In this document: positions 39,301 through 44,674 of the stretch, one piece after another
Layout: the number at the start of each line of letters is the position of its first letter
How positions within the stretch are numbered: the stretch's first letter is position 1
Sequence record: PP216085
DNA from: Escherichia phage vB_EcoM_HZ_ZJUN4
Strand: one strand, 5' to 3'
DNA: 64,000 nucleotides
Program-made: the position numbers and the translations under genes
The notes under the pieces: model-generated
Told to the model about the DNA's origin: nothing
Database searches by the model: none
Seen by the model: the letters and a program-made list of their open reading frames with translations, nothing else

Positions 39301-39314
39301 AGGCCTTCGGGCCT
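39301..39314 (+). terminator. hairpin aggccttcgggcct
   Basis: GC stem and UUCG loop after lipoprotein gene. Confidence 0.5.
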
Positions 39315-39315
39315 T

Positions 39316-39341
39316 TAGCTTTATGATTACCGGAGTATAAT
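39316..39341 (+). promoter_or_regulatory. candidate MotA-dependent middle promoter (tAGCTTTA 39316-39323, TATAAT 39336-39341, 12-nt spacing)
   Basis: Same module as 8421-8446. Confidence 0.45.
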
Positions 39342-39368
39342 ATTCCCGAAACCAAACGAGGATAAGTG

Positions 39369-40919
39369 ATGATTAAGAATGAAATTAAAATTCTAAGCGA
39401 TATTGAACATATCAAAAAGCGTAGCGGCATGTATATTGGCTCTTCTGCTAATGAAATGCATGAGCGCTTTCTGTTTGGTAAATGGGAAAGTGTTCAGTAT
39501 GTACCTGGTCTTGTTAAGCTTATTGATGAAATTATCGATAACTCAGTAGATGAAGGTATTCGTACTAAGTTTAAATTCGCAAATAAAATTAATGTTACTA
39601 TTAAAAACAATCAAGTAACAGTTGAAGATAACGGTCGTGGTATTCCACAAGCGATGGTTAAAACACCTACCGGTGAAGAAATTCCTGGTCCTGTTGCTGC
39701 ATGGACTATTCCAAAAGCAGGCGGTAACTTTGGTGATGATAAAGAACGCGTCACTGGCGGTATGAACGGTGTTGGTTCTAGTTTAACTAACATTTTTTCT
39801 GTGATGTTTGTCGGTGAAACTGGCGACGGTCAAAATAATATTGTAGTTCGTTGTTCAAATGGCATGGAAAATAAATCATGGGAAACTATTCCTGGAAAAT
39901 GGAAAGGAACTCGCGTTACTTTCATTCCTGATTTTATGTCATTTGAAACTAATGAGCTATCTCAAGTTTATCTTGACATTACACTAGATCGTCTCCAGAC
40001 ACTTGCAGTAGTTTATCCTGATATTCAATTTACCTTTAATGGTAAAAAGGTTCAGGGTAATTTTAAGAAATATGCACGCCAATATGATGAACACGCTATC
40101 GTTCAAGAACAAGAAAATTGTTCTATTGCGGTTGGTCGTTCACCCGATGGTTTTCGTCAATTAACATACGTCAATAACATTCATACTAAGAATGGTGGCC
40201 ATCACATTGACTGCGTTATGGATGATATTTGTGAAGACCTTATTCCACAAATCAAACGTAAGTTCAAAATTGACGTAACTAAAGCACGTGTTAAAGAATG
40301 TTTGACTATCGTTATGTTTGTTCGTGATATGAAAAACATGCGATTTGATTCTCAAACTAAAGAGCGTCTGACTTCTCCATTTGGTGAAATCCGTAGTCAT
40401 ATTCAGCTTGATGCTAAAAAGATTTCACGTGCTATTTTGAATAATGAAGCAATTTTAATGCCAATCATTGAAGCTGCCTTGGCTCGTAAATTGGCGGCAG
40501 AAAAAGCAGCAGAAACTAAAGCAGCTAAAAAGGCTTCTAAAGCTAAGGTTCATAAACATATTAAAGCGAATCTTTGCGGTAAAGATGCTGATACTACTCT
40601 TTTCTTGACTGAGGGTGATTCTGCTATCGGATATCTTATTGATGTTCGTGATAAAGAACTTCATGGTGGTTATCCATTGCGTGGTAAAGTTCTTAACAGT
40701 TGGGGTATGTCATATGCTGATATGCTTAAAAATAAAGAACTGTTTGATATTTGCGCAATCACTGGATTAGTTCTTGGTGAAAAGGCGTTTGAAGAAAAAG
40801 AAGATGGCGAGTGGTTTACTTTCGAACTAAATGGCGATACAATTATCGTAAATGAAAATGATGAAGTACAGATTAATGGTAAATGGATAACAGTAGGTGA
40901 ATTACGAAAAAATCTATAA
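39369..40919 (+). CDS. 39: DNA topoisomerase II large subunit gp39 (GyrB-like ATPase), N-terminal part of split gene
   Basis: 516 aa from ATG 39369; GHKL ATPase motifs (NSVDEG, GRGIP, GGMNGVGSS). Confidence 0.9.
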   Translation: MIKNEIKILSDIEHIKKRSGMYIGSSANEMHERFLFGKWESVQYVPGLVKLIDEIIDNSVDEGIRTKFKFANKINVTIKNNQVTVEDNGRGIPQAMVKTPTGEEIPGPVAAWTIPKAGGNFGDDKERVTGGMNGVGSSLTNIFSVMFVGETGDGQNNIVVRCSNGMENKSWETIPGKWKGTRVTFIPDFMSFETNELSQVYLDITLDRLQTLAVVYPDIQFTFNGKKVQGNFKKYARQYDEHAIVQEQENCSIAVGRSPDGFRQLTYVNNIHTKNGGHHIDCVMDDICEDLIPQIKRKFKIDVTKARVKECLTIVMFVRDMKNMRFDSQTKERLTSPFGEIRSHIQLDAKKISRAILNNEAILMPIIEAALARKLAAEKAAETKAAKKASKAKVHKHIKANLCGKDADTTLFLTEGDSAIGYLIDVRDKELHGGYPLRGKVLNSWGMSYADMLKNKELFDICAITGLVLGEKAFEEKEDGEWFTFELNGDTIIVNENDEVQINGKWITVGELRKNL

Positions 40920-41715
40920 TGACTTAATAGTGCGGGGTAAAACCCGCGTTTCTAAATTTAAGGGTGAAATTCATCATATCCTTCCAAGATCAATGGGAGG
41001 TTCTGATGATAAAGAAAATTTGGTGAAACTGACTTTTCGTGAACATTTTTTAGCACATTTTCTACTATATAAAATTCATCGTAATCGTGAAATGGCATAT
41101 GCGATGAATAGAATGTTAAACACTGAAAAATATTTACGTTCTAGTAAATTATATGAAATTACTAGAATTTACCATCAAAGAGCAGTATCTGAATGGTCAA
41201 AAAACTTTATGAAAGATAAAGTTTTAATGAGAAGTATTAAATCGGGTAAATGCGCCTTATTAATTAAAGGATCATTTAACCCAAAGGAATGGTGCGGTGT
41301 TAATAAAGGTGTTAAGCTTCCTGGAATTAAAGGCATGACATGCTTTAAAAATGAAAAAGGCGAAGTTTTTCGTCTTCATGTTAATGATCCACGCATTAAA
41401 GCTGAAAAATTAGTTGGTATTGGAAATACTGTTGCTGCTACTGCAAAAGCAGCTGAACTTGAAAAAGCGAAACCATGGTATAATAAATCAGCGACAAATC
41501 CAGAGGCTGTAAAATTAATACCAAATTTATATGAATGGTACGTCACGAAATATGACCCCGATCATTATAAACGAACGGGAGTTGCTAAATGGAAATCAGT
41601 TAATAATATAACTGTGAATTCAAAATTATTCGGCCGAGCATTTAATGAATTTAAACGCGGTTGGATTCCTGATGAAAAGTTCTATGAGGTGTATAATGAA
41701 ATTTGTAAAAATTGA
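40897..41715 (+). CDS. mobA: HNH homing endonuclease (MobA-like) between genes 39 and 60
   Basis: 272 aa; EIHHILPRSMGGSDDKENLVKLTFREHFLAHF HNH core; overlaps 39 end and 60 start. Confidence 0.7.
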   Translation: MNYEKIYNDLIVRGKTRVSKFKGEIHHILPRSMGGSDDKENLVKLTFREHFLAHFLLYKIHRNREMAYAMNRMLNTEKYLRSSKLYEITRIYHQRAVSEWSKNFMKDKVLMRSIKSGKCALLIKGSFNPKEWCGVNKGVKLPGIKGMTCFKNEKGEVFRLHVNDPRIKAEKLVGIGNTVAATAKAAELEKAKPWYNKSATNPEAVKLIPNLYEWYVTKYDPDHYKRTGVAKWKSVNNITVNSKLFGRAFNEFKRGWIPDEKFYEVYNEICKN

Positions 41716-41833
41716 TTCTTCTAGCGTTGATATGAAAAAATATAAATTGCAGAACAATGTTCGTCGTTCTATTAAATCCTCTTCAATGAACTATGCGAAT
41801 GTCGCTATTATGACAGACGCAGATCACGATGGA
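41696..41833 (+). CDS. 60: topoisomerase II subunit gp60, codons 1-46 (pre-bypass)
   Basis: MKFVKIDSSSVDMKKYKLQNNVRRSIKSSSMNYANVAIMTDADHDG ends at take-off GGA followed by TAG. Confidence 0.9.
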
Positions 41834-41883
41834 TAGCCTTCGGGCTATCTATAGAAATACCTCATAATTAAGAGATTATTGGA
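41834..41883 (+). promoter_or_regulatory. 60: gene 60 translational bypass coding gap (50 nt): UAG stop plus take-off stem-loop tagccttcgggctatct, ending at landing GGA 41881-41883
   Basis: Sequence GAT GGA TAG CCTTCGGGCTATCTATAGAAATACCTCATAATTAAGAGATTATT GGA TTA GGT matches the T4 gene 60 hop element as I recall it. Confidence 0.9.
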
Positions 41884-42228
41884 TTAGGTTCTATTTATCC
41901 TTCTCTGCTCGGATTTTTTAGTAATTGGCCAGAATTGTTTGAACAAGGAAGAATTCGCTTTGTCAAAACTCCTGTAATCATCGCTCAGGTCGGTAAAAAA
42001 CAAGAATGGTTTTATACAGTCGCTGAATATGAGAGTGCCAAAGATGCTCTACCTAAACATAGCATCCGTTATATTAAAGGACTTGGCTCTTTGGAAAAAT
42101 CTGAATATCGTGAGATGATTCAAAACCCAGTATATGATGTTGTTAAACTTCCTGAGAACTGGAAAGAGCTTTTTGAAATGCTCATGGGAGATAATGCTGA
42201 CCTTCGTAAAGAATGGATGAGCCAGTAG
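41884..42228 (+). CDS. 60: gp60 post-bypass segment (LGSIYPSLLGFFSNW...)
   Basis: In-frame continuation after landing codon; track lists only 41935-42228 from an internal Met. Confidence 0.88.
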   Translation, partial: LGSIYPSLLGFFSNWPELFEQGRIRFVKTPVIIAQVGKKQEWFYTVAEYESAKDALPKHSIRYIKGLGSLEKSEYREMIQNPVYDVVKLPENWKELFEMLMGDNADLRKEWMSQ

Positions 42229-42258
42229 TTTACTTTACCACAAGGACGTGGTATAATT
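42225..42258 (+). promoter_or_regulatory. T4-type early promoter (GTTTAC 42228-42233, TGGTATAAT -10 42252-42257)
   Basis: Near-consensus. Confidence 0.6.
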
Positions 42259-42282
42259 AATTGGGCAAATGAGGATATTGAA

Positions 42283-42486
42283 ATGAAATCATATAAAGTA
42301 AATTTAGAACTTTTTGATAAAGCAGTTCATCGAGAATATAGAATCATTCAACGCTTTTTCGATATGGGAGAAGCCGAAGAGTTTAAAAACCGCTTTAAGA
42401 ATATTAGAGATAAAATTCAATCCGACACCGCAACTAAAGATGAACTACTAGAAGTTGCTGAAGTTATTAAACGCAATATGAATTAA
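42283..42486 (+). CDS. hypothetical protein
   Basis: 67-aa ORF upstream of rIIA. Confidence 0.5.
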
Positions 42487-42496
42487 TGAGGAAATT

Positions 42497-44674
42497 ATGA
42501 TTATCACCACTGAAAAAGAAACTATTCTTGGTAATGGTTCTAAATCAAAAGCATTTAGCATCACAGCATCTCCTAAAGTATTTAAAATTCTGTCATCTGA
42601 TTTGTATACAAACAAGATTCGCGCAGTAGTACGTGAATTGATTACTAATATGATTGATGCCCATGCTCTTAATGGAAATCCTGAAAAATTTATCATACAA
42701 GTTCCAGGACGATTAGACCCACGATTTGTTTGCCGAGATTTTGGTCCGGGTATGAGCGATTTTGATATTCAGGGTGATGATAATTCTCCTGGGTTGTATA
42801 ATTCATACTTTAGTTCATCTAAGGCTGAATCTAACGATTTCATTGGCGGATTTGGTTTAGGTTCTAAATCTCCGTTTAGTTATACTGATACATTTAGTAT
42901 TACTTCATATCATAAAGGTGAAATTCGTGGTTATGTAGCTTACATGGATGGTGACGGTCCGCAGATTAAACCTACATTCGTAAAAGAAATGGGTCCAAAT
43001 GATAAAACTGGTATTGAAATCGTAGTTCCAGTTGAAGAAAAAGACTTTAGAAACTTTGCTTATGAAGTTTCTTATATCATGCGACCATTCAAAGATTTGG
43101 CTATTATTAATGGTCTTGACCGTGAAATTGATTATTTTCCGGATTTTGATGACTATTACGGCGTAAATCCAGAAAGATATTGGCCAGATCGTGGTGGATT
43201 GTATGCTATCTATGGCGGTATTGTTTATCCTATTGATGGTGTTATTAGAGACCGTAACTGGTTAAGCATCCGCAATGAAGTGAATTATATTAAGTTTCCA
43301 ATGGGTTCACTTGATATTGCTCCATCGCGTGAGGCTCTTTCACTAGATGATCGTACTCGTAAAAATATTATTGAGCGTGTTAAAGAGCTCAGTGAGAAGG
43401 CATTTAATGAAGATGTAAAACGATTTAAAGAATCTACATCTCCTCGTCATACATACCGTGAATTGATGAAGATGGGGTATTCTGCTCGAGATTATATGAT
43501 TAGTAATTCAGTCAAATTCACGACTAAAAATCTGTCATATAAGAAGATGCAGAGCATGTTTGAACCTGACAGTAAGTTATGCAATGCAGGGGTTGTGTAT
43601 GAAGTAAATCTTGACCCTCGACTGAAACGCATTAAGCAAAGTCATGAAACTTCAGCCGTTGCATCAAGCTATCGTCTGTTTGGTATTAATACGACAAAAA
43701 TTAATATTGTTATTGATAATACTAAAAATCGTGTTAATATTGTCCGTGGATTAGCACGCGCGTTAGATGATAGTGAATTTAATAACACCTTAAATATTCA
43801 TCACAATGAGCGGCTTCTGTTTATTAATCCGGAAGTAGAATCGCAGATTGATTTGCTTCCTGATATTATGGCAATGTTTGAAAGTGATGAAGTTAACATT
43901 CATTATTTATCAGAAATTGAAGCTTTAGTTAAAAGTTATATTCCAAAGGCAGTAAAAAGTACAGCTCCTCGTCCTAAAGCTGCTACTGCATTTAAGTTTG
44001 AAATTAAAGACGGGCGCTGGGAAAAAGAGGAATTGTTTACGCTCACATCAGAAGCAGATGAAATTACTGGTTATGTAGCATACATGCATCGTTCTGATAT
44101 TTTCTCTATGGATGGTACTACATCGCTTTGTCATCCATCTACGAGTATTTTGACTCGTATGGCTAATCTTATTGGCATTAATGAATTTTATGTTATTCGT
44201 CCGCTTTTGCAGAAAAAGGTAAAAGAACTTGGTCAATGCCAATGTATTTTTGAAACTTTGCGTGATTTATATGTAGATGCTTTTGATGATGTAGATTATG
44301 ATAAGTATGTAGGTTATTCAAGTTCAGCTAAACGATATATTGATAAAATTATCAAGTATCCTGAGTTAGATTTTATGATGAAGTACTTCAGTGTAGATGA
44401 AGTTTCTGAAGAATATACACGACTCGCTAATATGGTTAGTTCATTACAGGGTGTATATTTCAACGGTGGAAAAGATACCATCGGTCATGACATCTGGACA
44501 GTAACTAATCTTTTTGATGTATTATCAAATAATGCTTCAAAAAACAGTGATAAAATGGTTGCTGAGTTTACCAAGAAATTCCGTATTGTTTCCGACTTCA
44601 TCGGTTATCGCAACTCTTTAAGTGATGATGAAGTTTCCCAAATCGCTAAAACTATGAAGGCCCTTGCGGCCTAA
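42497..44674 (+). CDS. rIIA: rIIA membrane-associated protein (lysis inhibition / exclusion phenotype)
   Basis: 725 aa; size and position as T4 rIIA; GHKL-like N-terminal region. Confidence 0.88.

Follow-up and report, generated by a model that had tools for sequence, protein, structure and literature searches.

The window analysed here, a 64,000-nt stretch of DNA from Escherichia phage vB_EcoM_HZ_ZJUN4 (PP216085), contains at positions 41696 to 42228 two open reading frames that are separated by a 50-nt gap opening with a stop codon, and the question raised by this locus is whether the two are nonetheless translated into a single protein. A first-pass annotation, made from the letters alone, had read the region as an intact copy of the programmed translational bypass element of phage T4 gene 60. 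On the basis of sequence comparison, we give a probability of about 97% to the reading that 41696 to 42228 is gene 60 of a T4-like phage (Tequatrovirus) with canonical programmed translational bypass. The sequence features, the identity to T4, the collinearity with unsplit homologues, and the co-variation across cassettes on which this reading draws are direct observations, and no sequence feature arguing against gene 60 bypass was found at the locus. All features described below lie on the plus strand.

Layout of gene 60 and comparison with T4

The first open reading frame (ORF1, 41696 to 41833) comprises codons 1 to 46, begins with the ATG at 41696 to 41698, and has the translation MKFVKIDSSSVDMKKYKLQNNVRRSIKSSSMNYANVAIMTDADHDG. 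It is preceded, 5 nt 5' of the ATG, by a Shine-Dalgarno (SD) motif read from the sequence as GAGGU (41686 to 41690), the GAGG of which is kept in the Bragavirus, Gelderlandvirus, and Thanatos-1 cassettes discussed below. Codons 14 to 30 (41735 to 41785) encode the nascent-peptide signal KKYKLQNNVRRSIKSSS, to which a role in the exit tunnel is ascribed (PMC7026636; 10.1101/2022.08.31.505936) and which is 100% identical here to that of T4 and of 5NP6 chain C, with the key residues Y16, Q19, V22, and R24 present. It is followed by a 5' stem-loop (UGCG..GUCGC-UAUUAU-GACAG..CGCA, 41794 to 41821; fold -9.3 kcal/mol, z = -2.7) whose sequence is that of T4. The second open reading frame (ORF2, 41884 to 42228) supplies codons 47 to 160 and the stop; it starts TTA GGT (UUA at 41884), reads LGSIYPSLLGFFSNWPELFEQGRIRFVKTP..., terminates at the TAG at 42226 to 42228, and encodes the rest of the Toprim domain and the TOPRIM_C/GyrB C-terminal region (Pfam TOPRIM_C, E = 6e-8). 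ORF2 lies in the +2/-1 frame relative to ORF1. The joined product has 160 amino acids and a single Gly at its junction (...AIMTDADHDGLGSIYPSLLGFF...), and at least 80% of its length is matched in 1612 phage records.

The match to the T4 hopping site, which the first-pass annotation had proposed, is borne out by alignment. Across ORF1 and the gap (188 nt), and for 59 nt thereafter, the window agrees with T4 at every base, a match well outside chance; there are zero differences from T4 across 41420 to 41942, and the take-off codon, landing codon, and stem-loop show no difference that could abolish hopping. The GGA/GGA codon pair, the UAG, the UUCG take-off hairpin, the nascent peptide, the GAG mini-SD, and the 5' stem-loop are all common to T4 and the window. 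[quoted passage not shown] That ribosomes do bypass the gap in T4, producing one polypeptide, is established by experiment (10.1101/2022.08.31.505936; PMC7026636; PMC11194080), the T4 gene 60 bypass having been described by Huang et al. 1988, Weiss et al. 1990, Samatova et al. 2014, and Agirrezabala et al. 2017 (PMC5462505) and reviewed in PMC7026636. A junction-spanning T4 peptide, ...HDGLGSIY..., has already been reported by mass spectrometry, according to a citation in 10.1101/2022.08.31.505936.

The phage in the window is nevertheless a different Tequatrovirus from T4, with gene 39 and rIIA about 3.7 to 3.9% diverged and a best 22-kb match in the phage collection of 96 to 97%. Alignment with the T4 RefSeq record NC_000866 (5.6 kb) gave 17 apparent gap openings, mostly single bases in mobA, which are gone against T4T (HM137666) and therefore belong to the older NC_000866 record and not to the window.

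A stop codon together with a change of frame resembles a disruption and is treated as such by automatic annotation, and it could be supposed that gene 60 is a pseudogene broken by insertion or that the gap is an assembly artefact. We regard this as extremely unlikely, as the same 50 nt occur at 98 to 100% identity in 41 independent phage records, the three ORF2 differences from T4 (41943, 41950, and 42078) are all synonymous, and functional features are kept, with compensatory changes, in diverged clades.

An unsplit homologue reads across the junction

Phage AR1, in which the topoisomerase large-subunit gene is unsplit, allows the two halves to be compared with an uninterrupted protein. By blastn, window positions 39301 to 40786 correspond to AR1 1020 to 2505 and window positions 41893 to 42300 to AR1 2570 to 2977. 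AR1 gp39 is collinear with gene 39 up to ...LVLGEKA, where homology ends at 40786, and it runs without interruption across the gene 60 junction (...IMTDADHDGLGSIYPSLLGFF...), which reads DADHDGLGSIYP with a single Gly; AR1 DNA lacks exactly the 50 nt. The first 30 residues of gene 60, its N-terminal extension (NTE), are missing from unsplit gp39, and the nascent-peptide segment is thus cassette borne. The joined gene 60 product also matches residues 517 to 676 of the solved T4 topoisomerase II chain 8YO3_C and is collinear with 8YLU_C. The earlier proposal that the protein on the two sides of the gap is one continuous topoisomerase subunit is therefore well founded.

These comparisons bear on the simplest alternative, in which ORF1 yields a 46-residue peptide ending at the UAG and ORF2 is initiated separately, with no hop. 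Many relatives are annotated with separate coding sequence (CDS) fragments, and about half of T4 ribosomes do not bypass (PMC7026636), both of which would fit such a scheme. However, ORF2 has no plausible independent start: the earliest ATG, GTG, or TTG in its frame after the TAA at 41869 to 41871 is the TTG at 41935, which has no SD and from which initiation would lose 17 conserved residues. The catalytic DxDxD of the Toprim domain would, moreover, stay on the 46-residue peptide, the AR1 homologue is continuous over the junction, and the joined sequence is present in the solved T4 enzyme (8YO3_C). The clade-wise co-variation of take-off and landing codons described below would likewise be needless for independent initiation. 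Separate translation of the halves is accordingly considered very improbable, in agreement with the first-pass annotation, which had named separate initiation as a finding that would count against it.

Take-off site, gap, and landing site

ORF1 ends with GAT GGA, the GGA at 41831 to 41833 being the take-off codon (Gly46). The stop codon UAG follows directly (41834 to 41836) and is invariant in all six aligned cassettes. Both codons lie in the 5' arm of the take-off stem-loop (41829 to 41850), which has 10 bp and a UUCG tetraloop around a core of 8 bp (GGAUAGCC-UUCG-GGCUAUCU). Its folds reach -11.7 kcal/mol (z = -4.2) and -14.7 kcal/mol (z = -5.2), and none of 200 shuffles folded as well as the latter. 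The first-pass annotation gave GAT GGA TAG, the GGA TTA GGT at the end of the gap, and the limits 41696 and 42228 correctly, base for base. Its stem-loop and its gap are both present; its placement of the hairpin after the TAG, and of the gap after the hairpin, needs amendment, since the hairpin includes the take-off codon and the stop, and the gap starts at that TAG and contains the hairpin from there on. As a candidate intrinsic terminator, the UUCG hairpin was rejected, there being no U-run after it, and a terminator scan of the region found none.

The untranslated coding gap extends over 50 nt (41834 to 41883), starting with the TAG and ending with the landing GGA. The landing codon (41881 to 41883) is identical to the take-off codon, so that both are readable by the same peptidyl-tRNA; peptidyl-tRNA-Gly would re-pair there without the codon being decoded a second time, and AR1 has a single Gly at this place (DHDG-LGS). 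Six nucleotides 5' of the landing codon, across the AU-rich spacer AUUAUU, is a mini-SD, GAG (41872 to 41874), which the alignment shows to be kept in Bragavirus and Gelderlandvirus and to be GAAG in Thanatos-1. The only further GGN triplet in the gap is GGG at nt 9 to 11, within the hairpin, and the 3' part holds no competing GGN. A 3' stem-loop ("forward slippage barrier") 3' of the landing site was not recovered, minimum free energy folds being no better than those of shuffles (z = +0.7 to +1.0) in a region that equals T4 for 59 nt. A tRNA scan of the window found zero tRNA genes, and the gene for the hopping tRNA-Gly would therefore lie in another part of the phage genome or in the host.

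The composition of the gap also bears on whether the halves could be joined by stop-codon readthrough, by a single frameshift near the UAG, or by both, with the gap being translated. The +2/-1 relation of the two frames is superficially like that of a frameshift site, and in the 51-nt gap of Bragavirus, UAG is the sole in-frame stop. In the window, however, no frame of the gap is open: frame 0 is closed by TAG triplets at nt 1 and 19, frame +1 by a TAA at nt 32, and frame +2 by a TAA at nt 36. Consequently, readthrough or one frameshift cannot join the gene 60 halves. Gap-encoded residues, in addition, have no counterpart in unsplit homologues or in the solved T4 protein, and we hold a translated gap to be exceedingly improbable.

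No greater weight is given to removal of the 50 nt from the RNA, either as a very small intron or by processing and ligation. Self-splicing group I introns do occur in T4-like phages, often with homing endonucleases (10.1101/2022.08.31.505936), but 50 nt is much below the size of group I or group II introns, and an Rfam scan of 40700 to 42500 at E <= 1 returned no intron and no other RNA family. Rfam itself has no family for the gene 60 bypass element.

The MobA cassette

Bypass of this gap can be placed in the context of the mobile element that carries it. Upstream, gene 39 (39369 to 40919) encodes the N-terminal part of the topoisomerase II large subunit, with the GHKL ATPase, the GyrB domain, and the start of Toprim (Pfam HATPase_c and DNA_gyraseB), its final ~44 codons, from 40787, being a cassette-encoded C-terminal extension (CTE). 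Comparison with unsplit AR1 by blastn delimits the cassette at 40787 to 41892, comprising the CTE, mobA, the NTE of gene 60, and the 50-nt gap, so that the bypass element forms its 3' end. It places 1106 nt where unsplit AR1 gene 39 has 64 nt, at the Toprim DxDxD site, values that are also given in 10.1101/2022.08.31.505936.

The mobA gene (40897 to 41715) is an intact HNH-family homing endonuclease ORF of 272 codons from a GTG, which shares, out of frame, its first 23 nt with gene 39 and its last 20 nt with gene 60. Its length and start are those of T4T mobA, from which it differs by 2 amino acids; its match to Pfam HNH is weak, with E = 7e-4 and a score of 20.1 bits that falls below the gathering cut-off of 21.4. 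From these comparisons, genes 39 and 60 are the two parts of an ancestral topoisomerase large-subunit gene, separated by an intact MobA ORF. The T4 RefSeq record NC_000866 shows the region in pieces, as a short "defective" mobA and a gene 60.1, whereas mobA is intact here, as in T4T. The arrangement of CTE, MobA, NTE, homR, and gap with out-of-frame ORF overlaps is that of MobA mobile element clade 1 (Bonocora et al. 2011, as cited in PMC7026636; Manning and Atkins 2022, 10.1101/2022.08.31.505936).

MobA cuts cassette-free gene 39, and the gap gives the carrier immunity, in the account of Bonocora et al. 2011 relayed by 10.1101/2022.08.31.505936 and PMC7026636. Relative to T4T, the cassette differs at 5 of 1106 nt (0.45%) and the flanks at 136 of 3596 (about 3.8%; Fisher p = 5e-11). 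The cassette is about 8 times less diverged than its flanks, a pattern that fits recent lateral spread by homing.

Diverged cassettes and other bypass systems

Cassettes in Bragavirus (Proteus), Gelderlandvirus (Salmonella S16), Shewanella Thanatos-1, and Aeromonas AS-gz share with T4 and the window the Toprim insertion site, matched codons, UAG, the hairpin, and the nascent peptide, although at 75 to 81% nucleotide identity for the element and 37 to 54% identity for MobA. The take-off and landing codons and gap lengths are GGA/GGA and 50 nt in T4, GGG/GGA and 51 nt in Bragavirus, GGU/GGC and 48 nt in Gelderlandvirus, and GGU/GGU and 52 nt in Thanatos-1, each of these wobble-matched Gly pairs being readable by a single tRNA-Gly. 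Within the stem, the third base of the take-off codon and its partner change together, in three states, A-U in T4, G-C in Bragavirus, and U-A in Gelderlandvirus and Thanatos-1, and residues Y16, Q19, V22, and R/K24 of the nascent peptide are kept across the diverged cassettes. The wobble-matched pairs and the stem co-variation had been reported by Manning and Atkins 2022 (10.1101/2022.08.31.505936) and are replicated here. Aeromonas AS-gz differs from T4 in its codon pair, GAC/GAC, and in a gap of about 17 nt.

A more distant likeness is offered by the mitochondrial "byp" elements of Magnusiomyces capitatus, which, as Lang et al. 2014 is cited in 10.1101/2022.08.31.505936 and PMC7026636, work in a similar way and have matched codons, a take-off hairpin, an undecodable A-site codon, and gaps of 27 to 55 nt. 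They are unrelated in sequence, lack an SD and MobA, occur in many copies per genome, and reside in a eukaryotic organelle, and they represent a separate family.

A conserved motif within the gap

The alignment also reveals ACCUCA at gap nt 26 to 31 (41859 to 41864), which is invariant in the four lineages with 48- to 52-nt gaps and was not found in the 17-nt gap cassette of Aeromonas AS-gz, so that it is not universal. The two bypass preprints searched do not name it. The motif resembles an anti-SD, and in the T4 clade, it falls within a 9- to 10-bp complement, UACCUCAUA, to the gene 60 ribosome binding site (RBS) UAUGAGGUG (41683 to 41691). The gap-RBS duplex has -15.8 kcal/mol in T4, a value that 1.7% of shuffles also reach, and pairing in the other three clades is no better than in shuffles; as significance is confined to the T4 clade, we do not claim the pairing as a conserved feature. 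Bypassing in vitro persists with CUCAUA deleted or repeated, and published work suggests that the distance between one ribosome and the next influences 5' stem-loop formation. It could be speculated that ACCUCA has a function apart from the hop, with the gap transiently sequestering the gene 60 start and thereby spacing ribosomes, or with a role in MobA immunity at the DNA level, but we consider any such function very unlikely.

Proposed mechanism

For this phage, the ribosomal events and their efficiency are inferred from what experiments with the same sequence in T4 have shown, and the steps proposed here are those published for T4 (PMC7026636; PMC11194080; 10.1101/2022.08.31.505936). After translation of 46 codons, the nascent peptide, namely, KKYKLQNNVRRSIKSSS and neighbouring residues, would grip the exit tunnel and slow the ribosome. 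[quoted passage not shown] The ribosome would slide over 50 nt without decoding while the 5' stem-loop and the take-off stem-loop refold behind it and aid forward movement, until the tRNA, helped by the GAG mini-SD that lies 6 nt upstream, re-pairs at the matched GGA and decoding restarts at UUA. Assistance of landing by the mini-SD and the driving of forward movement by the refolding 5' stem-loop are both described for the known element (10.1101/2022.08.31.505936; PMC7026636). The outcome would be one 160-residue topoisomerase subunit from two reading frames, at an efficiency of about 50%.

Annotation and significance

The bypass element, an exact copy of the T4 gene 60 signal, is an established phenomenon, as the first-pass annotation recognized; only this instance is new, and nothing is added to the bypass mechanism. 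Its further statement that gene callers miss the element holds for ESh36, GRNsp7, G50, ELT1, and others, which carry two or more CDS fragments, unlike the curated T4 records, which give a joined CDS and a misc_feature labelling precisely these 50 nt as bypassed. Many deposited relatives miscall gene 60, splitting it into two or three "hypothetical" fragments. The correct annotation of the window would be genes 39 and 60 as a split topoisomerase II large subunit, with the gene 60 CDS as a join of 41696 to 41833 and 41884 to 42228. The locus adds one more to the natural carriers of an intact MobA-plus-bypass cassette, with a phage backbone that differs from T4 by about 4%.

Layout of gene 60 and identity with T4

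Gene 60 of the phage (41696-42228, plus strand) consists of two ORFs separated by a 50-nt gap (41834-41883), with ORF2 in the +2 frame relative to ORF1. As read from the sequence, it begins with an ATG at 41696, with GAGGU upstream at 41686-41690, and ORF1 translates as 46 codons, MKFVKIDSSSVDMKKYKLQNNVRRSIKSSSMNYANVAIMTDADHDG, of which the last two are GAU GGA. The take-off codon GGA (41831-41833) is directly followed by a UAG stop (41834-41836), so that the hop comes right behind the Toprim acidic motif DADHDG. The landing codon GGA (41881-41883) continues into UUA GGU, and the 114 translated codons of ORF2 read LGSIYPSLLGFFSNWPELFEQGRIRFVKTP... up to a UAG at 42226-42228. The first-pass annotation had described two ORFs with GAT GGA TAG, a 50-nt gap, and GGA TTA GGT, and the sequence of 41400-42500 and its translation agree. 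It had also placed a hairpin after the stop and the gap after the hairpin; the hairpin and the length of 50 nt stand, but the take-off codon and UAG lie inside the stem-loop, GGAUAGCC-UUCG-GGCUAUCU, and the hairpin sits within the gap.

A 701-nt query around the element matched 497 phage records, 41 of them with at least 80% query coverage, and the top matches were Shigella phage ESh36 (99.6%) and T4 isolates (99.4%). The alignment to T4 gene 60 that had been proposed as a check gives zero differences, base by base, over 41420-41942, which spans ORF1, the gap, and the following 59 nt; three synonymous differences in ORF2 all lie beyond 41942, and the joined product is 100% identical to T4 gp60. 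Likewise, in the PDB comparison the ORF1 protein is 100% identical to 5NP6 chain C, and the joined protein equals residues 517-676 of 8YO3_C, the "phage T4 topoisomerase II gp39-gp60 subunit." Curated T4 records annotate this stretch as a joined gene 60 CDS with a misc_feature "non-coding translational bypass region." The element had been recognized as the T4 ribosome-hopping site, an established phenomenon, and it is identical in each defining feature tested and therefore already known. It belongs to the T4 gene 60 bypass family as a clade 1 MobA element, and the earlier interpretation is supported. Near-identical copies in 41 independent cases, ORF2 changes that are all synonymous, and the compensatory evolution of other clades rule out a pseudogene or artefact.

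Continuity of the protein across the gap

Gene 39 is unsplit in most relatives. A tblastn search with joined gp60 gave 1612 records with query coverage of at least 80%; among the unsplit relatives sampled, the match begins at about residue 27-33. The 605-aa gp39 of phage AR1, which has an unsplit gene 39, runs unbroken through the junction (...LVLGEKAENLNYHNIAIMTDADHDGLGSIYPSLLGFFSNWPELFEQGRIRFVKTP...), bearing out the earlier statement that both sides form one continuous topoisomerase subunit. Only one Gly is present there, as predicted if the landing GGA re-pairs with the tRNA without a second decoding, and AR1 DNA lacks exactly the 50 nt of the gap. Pfam identified TOPRIM_C in joined gp60 (E = 6e-8; DNA_gyraseB_C was under the cut-off), and HATPase_c and DNA_gyraseB in gene 39.

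Independent initiation of ORF2 is very unlikely, as the first in-frame start is a TTG at 41935 without a Shine-Dalgarno (SD) sequence, and the Toprim motif would be left on a 46-aa peptide. Each of the three frames meets a stop inside the gap (TAG at gap nt 1 and 19 in frame 0, TAA at nt 32 in +1, and TAA at nt 36 in +2), and therefore joining of the halves by readthrough or one frameshift is excluded. The gap's size, its persistence in mRNA in published work, and the lack of intron model matches rule out splicing; Rfam yielded neither an intron nor a family matching the element.

Bypass signals and probable mechanism

The 8-bp core of the take-off hairpin (41831-41850) folds at -11.7 kcal/mol (z = -4.2) and its 10-bp form (41829-41850) at -14.7 kcal/mol (z = -5.2, with zero shuffles equally stable), while the 5' stem-loop (41794-41821) reaches -9.3 kcal/mol (z = -2.7). 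A mini-SD GAG (41872-41874) lies 6 nt 5' of the landing codon, and the sole other GGN in the gap, a GGG at gap nt 9-11, is buried within the hairpin. Past the landing site, from 41884, no 3' stem-loop fold beat shuffles (z = +0.7 to +1.0); as the sequence there is identical to T4, whatever structure T4 forms can form here. ARAGORN found zero tRNA genes over window positions 1-64000, so the hopping tRNA-Gly must come from elsewhere in the phage genome or from the host.

Studies of the identical T4 sequence (PMC7026636, PMC11194080, 10.1101/2022.08.31.505936) describe steps that may be inferred to apply in this phage. The nascent peptide would slow the ribosome with peptidyl-tRNA-Gly anchored, and the top of the take-off hairpin would fold in the A site, keeping out release factor and enabling EF-G-driven pseudo-translocation. 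A hyper-rotated ribosome would then slide at ~1.2 nt/s at the cost of GTP, its direction set by refolding of both the 5' stem-loop and the take-off stem-loop behind it, and the mini-SD and matched GGA would fix the landing position, with ~50% of ribosomes completing the hop.

Diverged cassettes in other phages

A 111-nt query (ORF1 end, gap, and ORF2 start) found diverged copies at 75-81% identity in Bragavirus (Proteus phages SJ_PmiM, PM2, and Pm5461), Gelderlandvirus (Salmonella S16, UTK0003, AKM_NP4, and SEA1, and Escherichia UoN_LG358_1), and Shewanella phage Thanatos-1. All share the order gene 39, HNH endonuclease, small ORF, gap, ORF2. Among public records, bypass cassettes lie at L003 2895-3431, L004 2895-3431, L005 2898-3425, L006 2896-3423, and L007 2899-3427; the halves are annotated in these three groups as two topoisomerase or hypothetical CDSs, and a joined CDS is absent.

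The codons for take-off and landing read GGA/GGA in T4 and the window (gap, 50 nt), GGG/GGA in Bragavirus (51 nt), GGU/GGC in Gelderlandvirus (48 nt), and GGU/GGU in Thanatos-1 (52 nt), and the stem pair at the third take-off base is A-U, G-C, U-A, and U-A, respectively. In every clade one tRNA-Gly isoacceptor can read both codons of the pair. The alignment retains UAG and the 8-bp take-off stem across all four clades, and nascent-peptide residues Y16, Q19, V22, and R/K24 are conserved among the aligned clades. Aeromonas phage AS-gz differs, with a GAC...GAC pair and a 17-nt gap. The clade comparison is strong evidence from nature both for tRNA re-pairing and for the hairpin. It is not new: identical clades, pairs of codons, and compensatory changes are reported in 10.1101/2022.08.31.505936.

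The Bragavirus gap of 51 nt is in frame with UAG as its sole in-frame stop, which would make simple readthrough a competing route in that genus. Variants within the T4 clade include U>C at gap nt 17 (G·U to G-C at the stem base) and A>U at nt 20, with loss of the second in-frame UAG. Salmonella phage GRNsp7 (L012) carries an extra T at window ~41876, in the AU-rich stretch that separates the mini-SD from the landing codon, giving a 51-nt gap and an SD-to-landing spacing of 7 nt; the extra base could reflect either natural variation or a sequencing error in a homopolymer.

The sole loose end of the analysis is ACCUCA (41859-41864, gap nt 26-31), which resembles an anti-SD and is invariant in T4, Bragavirus, Gelderlandvirus, and Thanatos-1, with adjoining gap positions varying. 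The short-gap AS-gz form lacks it, and no mention of it was found in the preprints searched. In T4 and the window, UACCUCAUA, containing ACCUCA, is complementary to the gene 60 ribosome-binding site UAUGAGGUG. The duplex has an energy of -15.8 kcal/mol, which 1.7% of shuffles also reach; in the three other clades this pairing is no better than shuffles. ACCUCA is dispensable for bypassing in vitro, as judged from CUCAUA deletions and insertions (PMC11194080).

The MobA cassette

Homology to AR1 stops at 40786 and restarts at 41893, with 1106 nt in place of 64 nt of the unsplit gene, figures that agree with those given by Manning & Atkins (bioRxiv 10.1101/2022.08.31.505936) for the "MobA element." Their account extends work by Bonocora et al. 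2011, who, as cited there and in PMC7026636, showed that the split gene is mobilised by MobA jointly with the gap, which keeps MobA from self-cleavage. The cassette comprises a gene 39 C-terminal extension of ~44 codons; mobA (40897-41715), an intact HNH-type homing endonuclease gene of 272 codons with 2 aa differences from the T4 record T4T (HM137666); gene 60 codons 1-30, carrying the entire nascent-peptide signal; 16 gene 60 codons replacing the deleted target sequence; and the 50-nt gap.

The T4 RefSeq record NC_000866 has 11 extra single bases in the mobA region and annotates a short "defective" mobA and gene 60.1. These indels vanish against T4T and so belong to the older record, either as sequencing errors or as a lab-strain pseudogene. 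A strong sigma-70-like promoter match (TTTACT-17-TATAAT, extended -10 TG, 10/12) lies upstream of rIIA.1 at 42229-42257, where it directly follows the stop codon of gene 60; promoter-like sites across the region total no higher than in shuffles.

The phage collection does not contain this backbone as such, its best 22-kb matches being 96-97% identical. The 336 nt of gene 60 directly 3' of the cassette diverge from T4T by 0.9%. Within the cassette (40787-41892), 5 of 1106 positions differ from T4T (0.45%), versus 52 of 1418 (3.67%) in the shared part of gene 39 (39369-40786) and 84 of 2178 (3.86%) in rIIA (42497-44674; Fisher p = 5e-11 against the pooled flanks). Low cassette and high flank divergence is the pattern expected of recent lateral spread into a diverged backbone, and, on these comparisons, the cassette looks like a recent lateral acquisition via homing, together with a short co-conversion tract.
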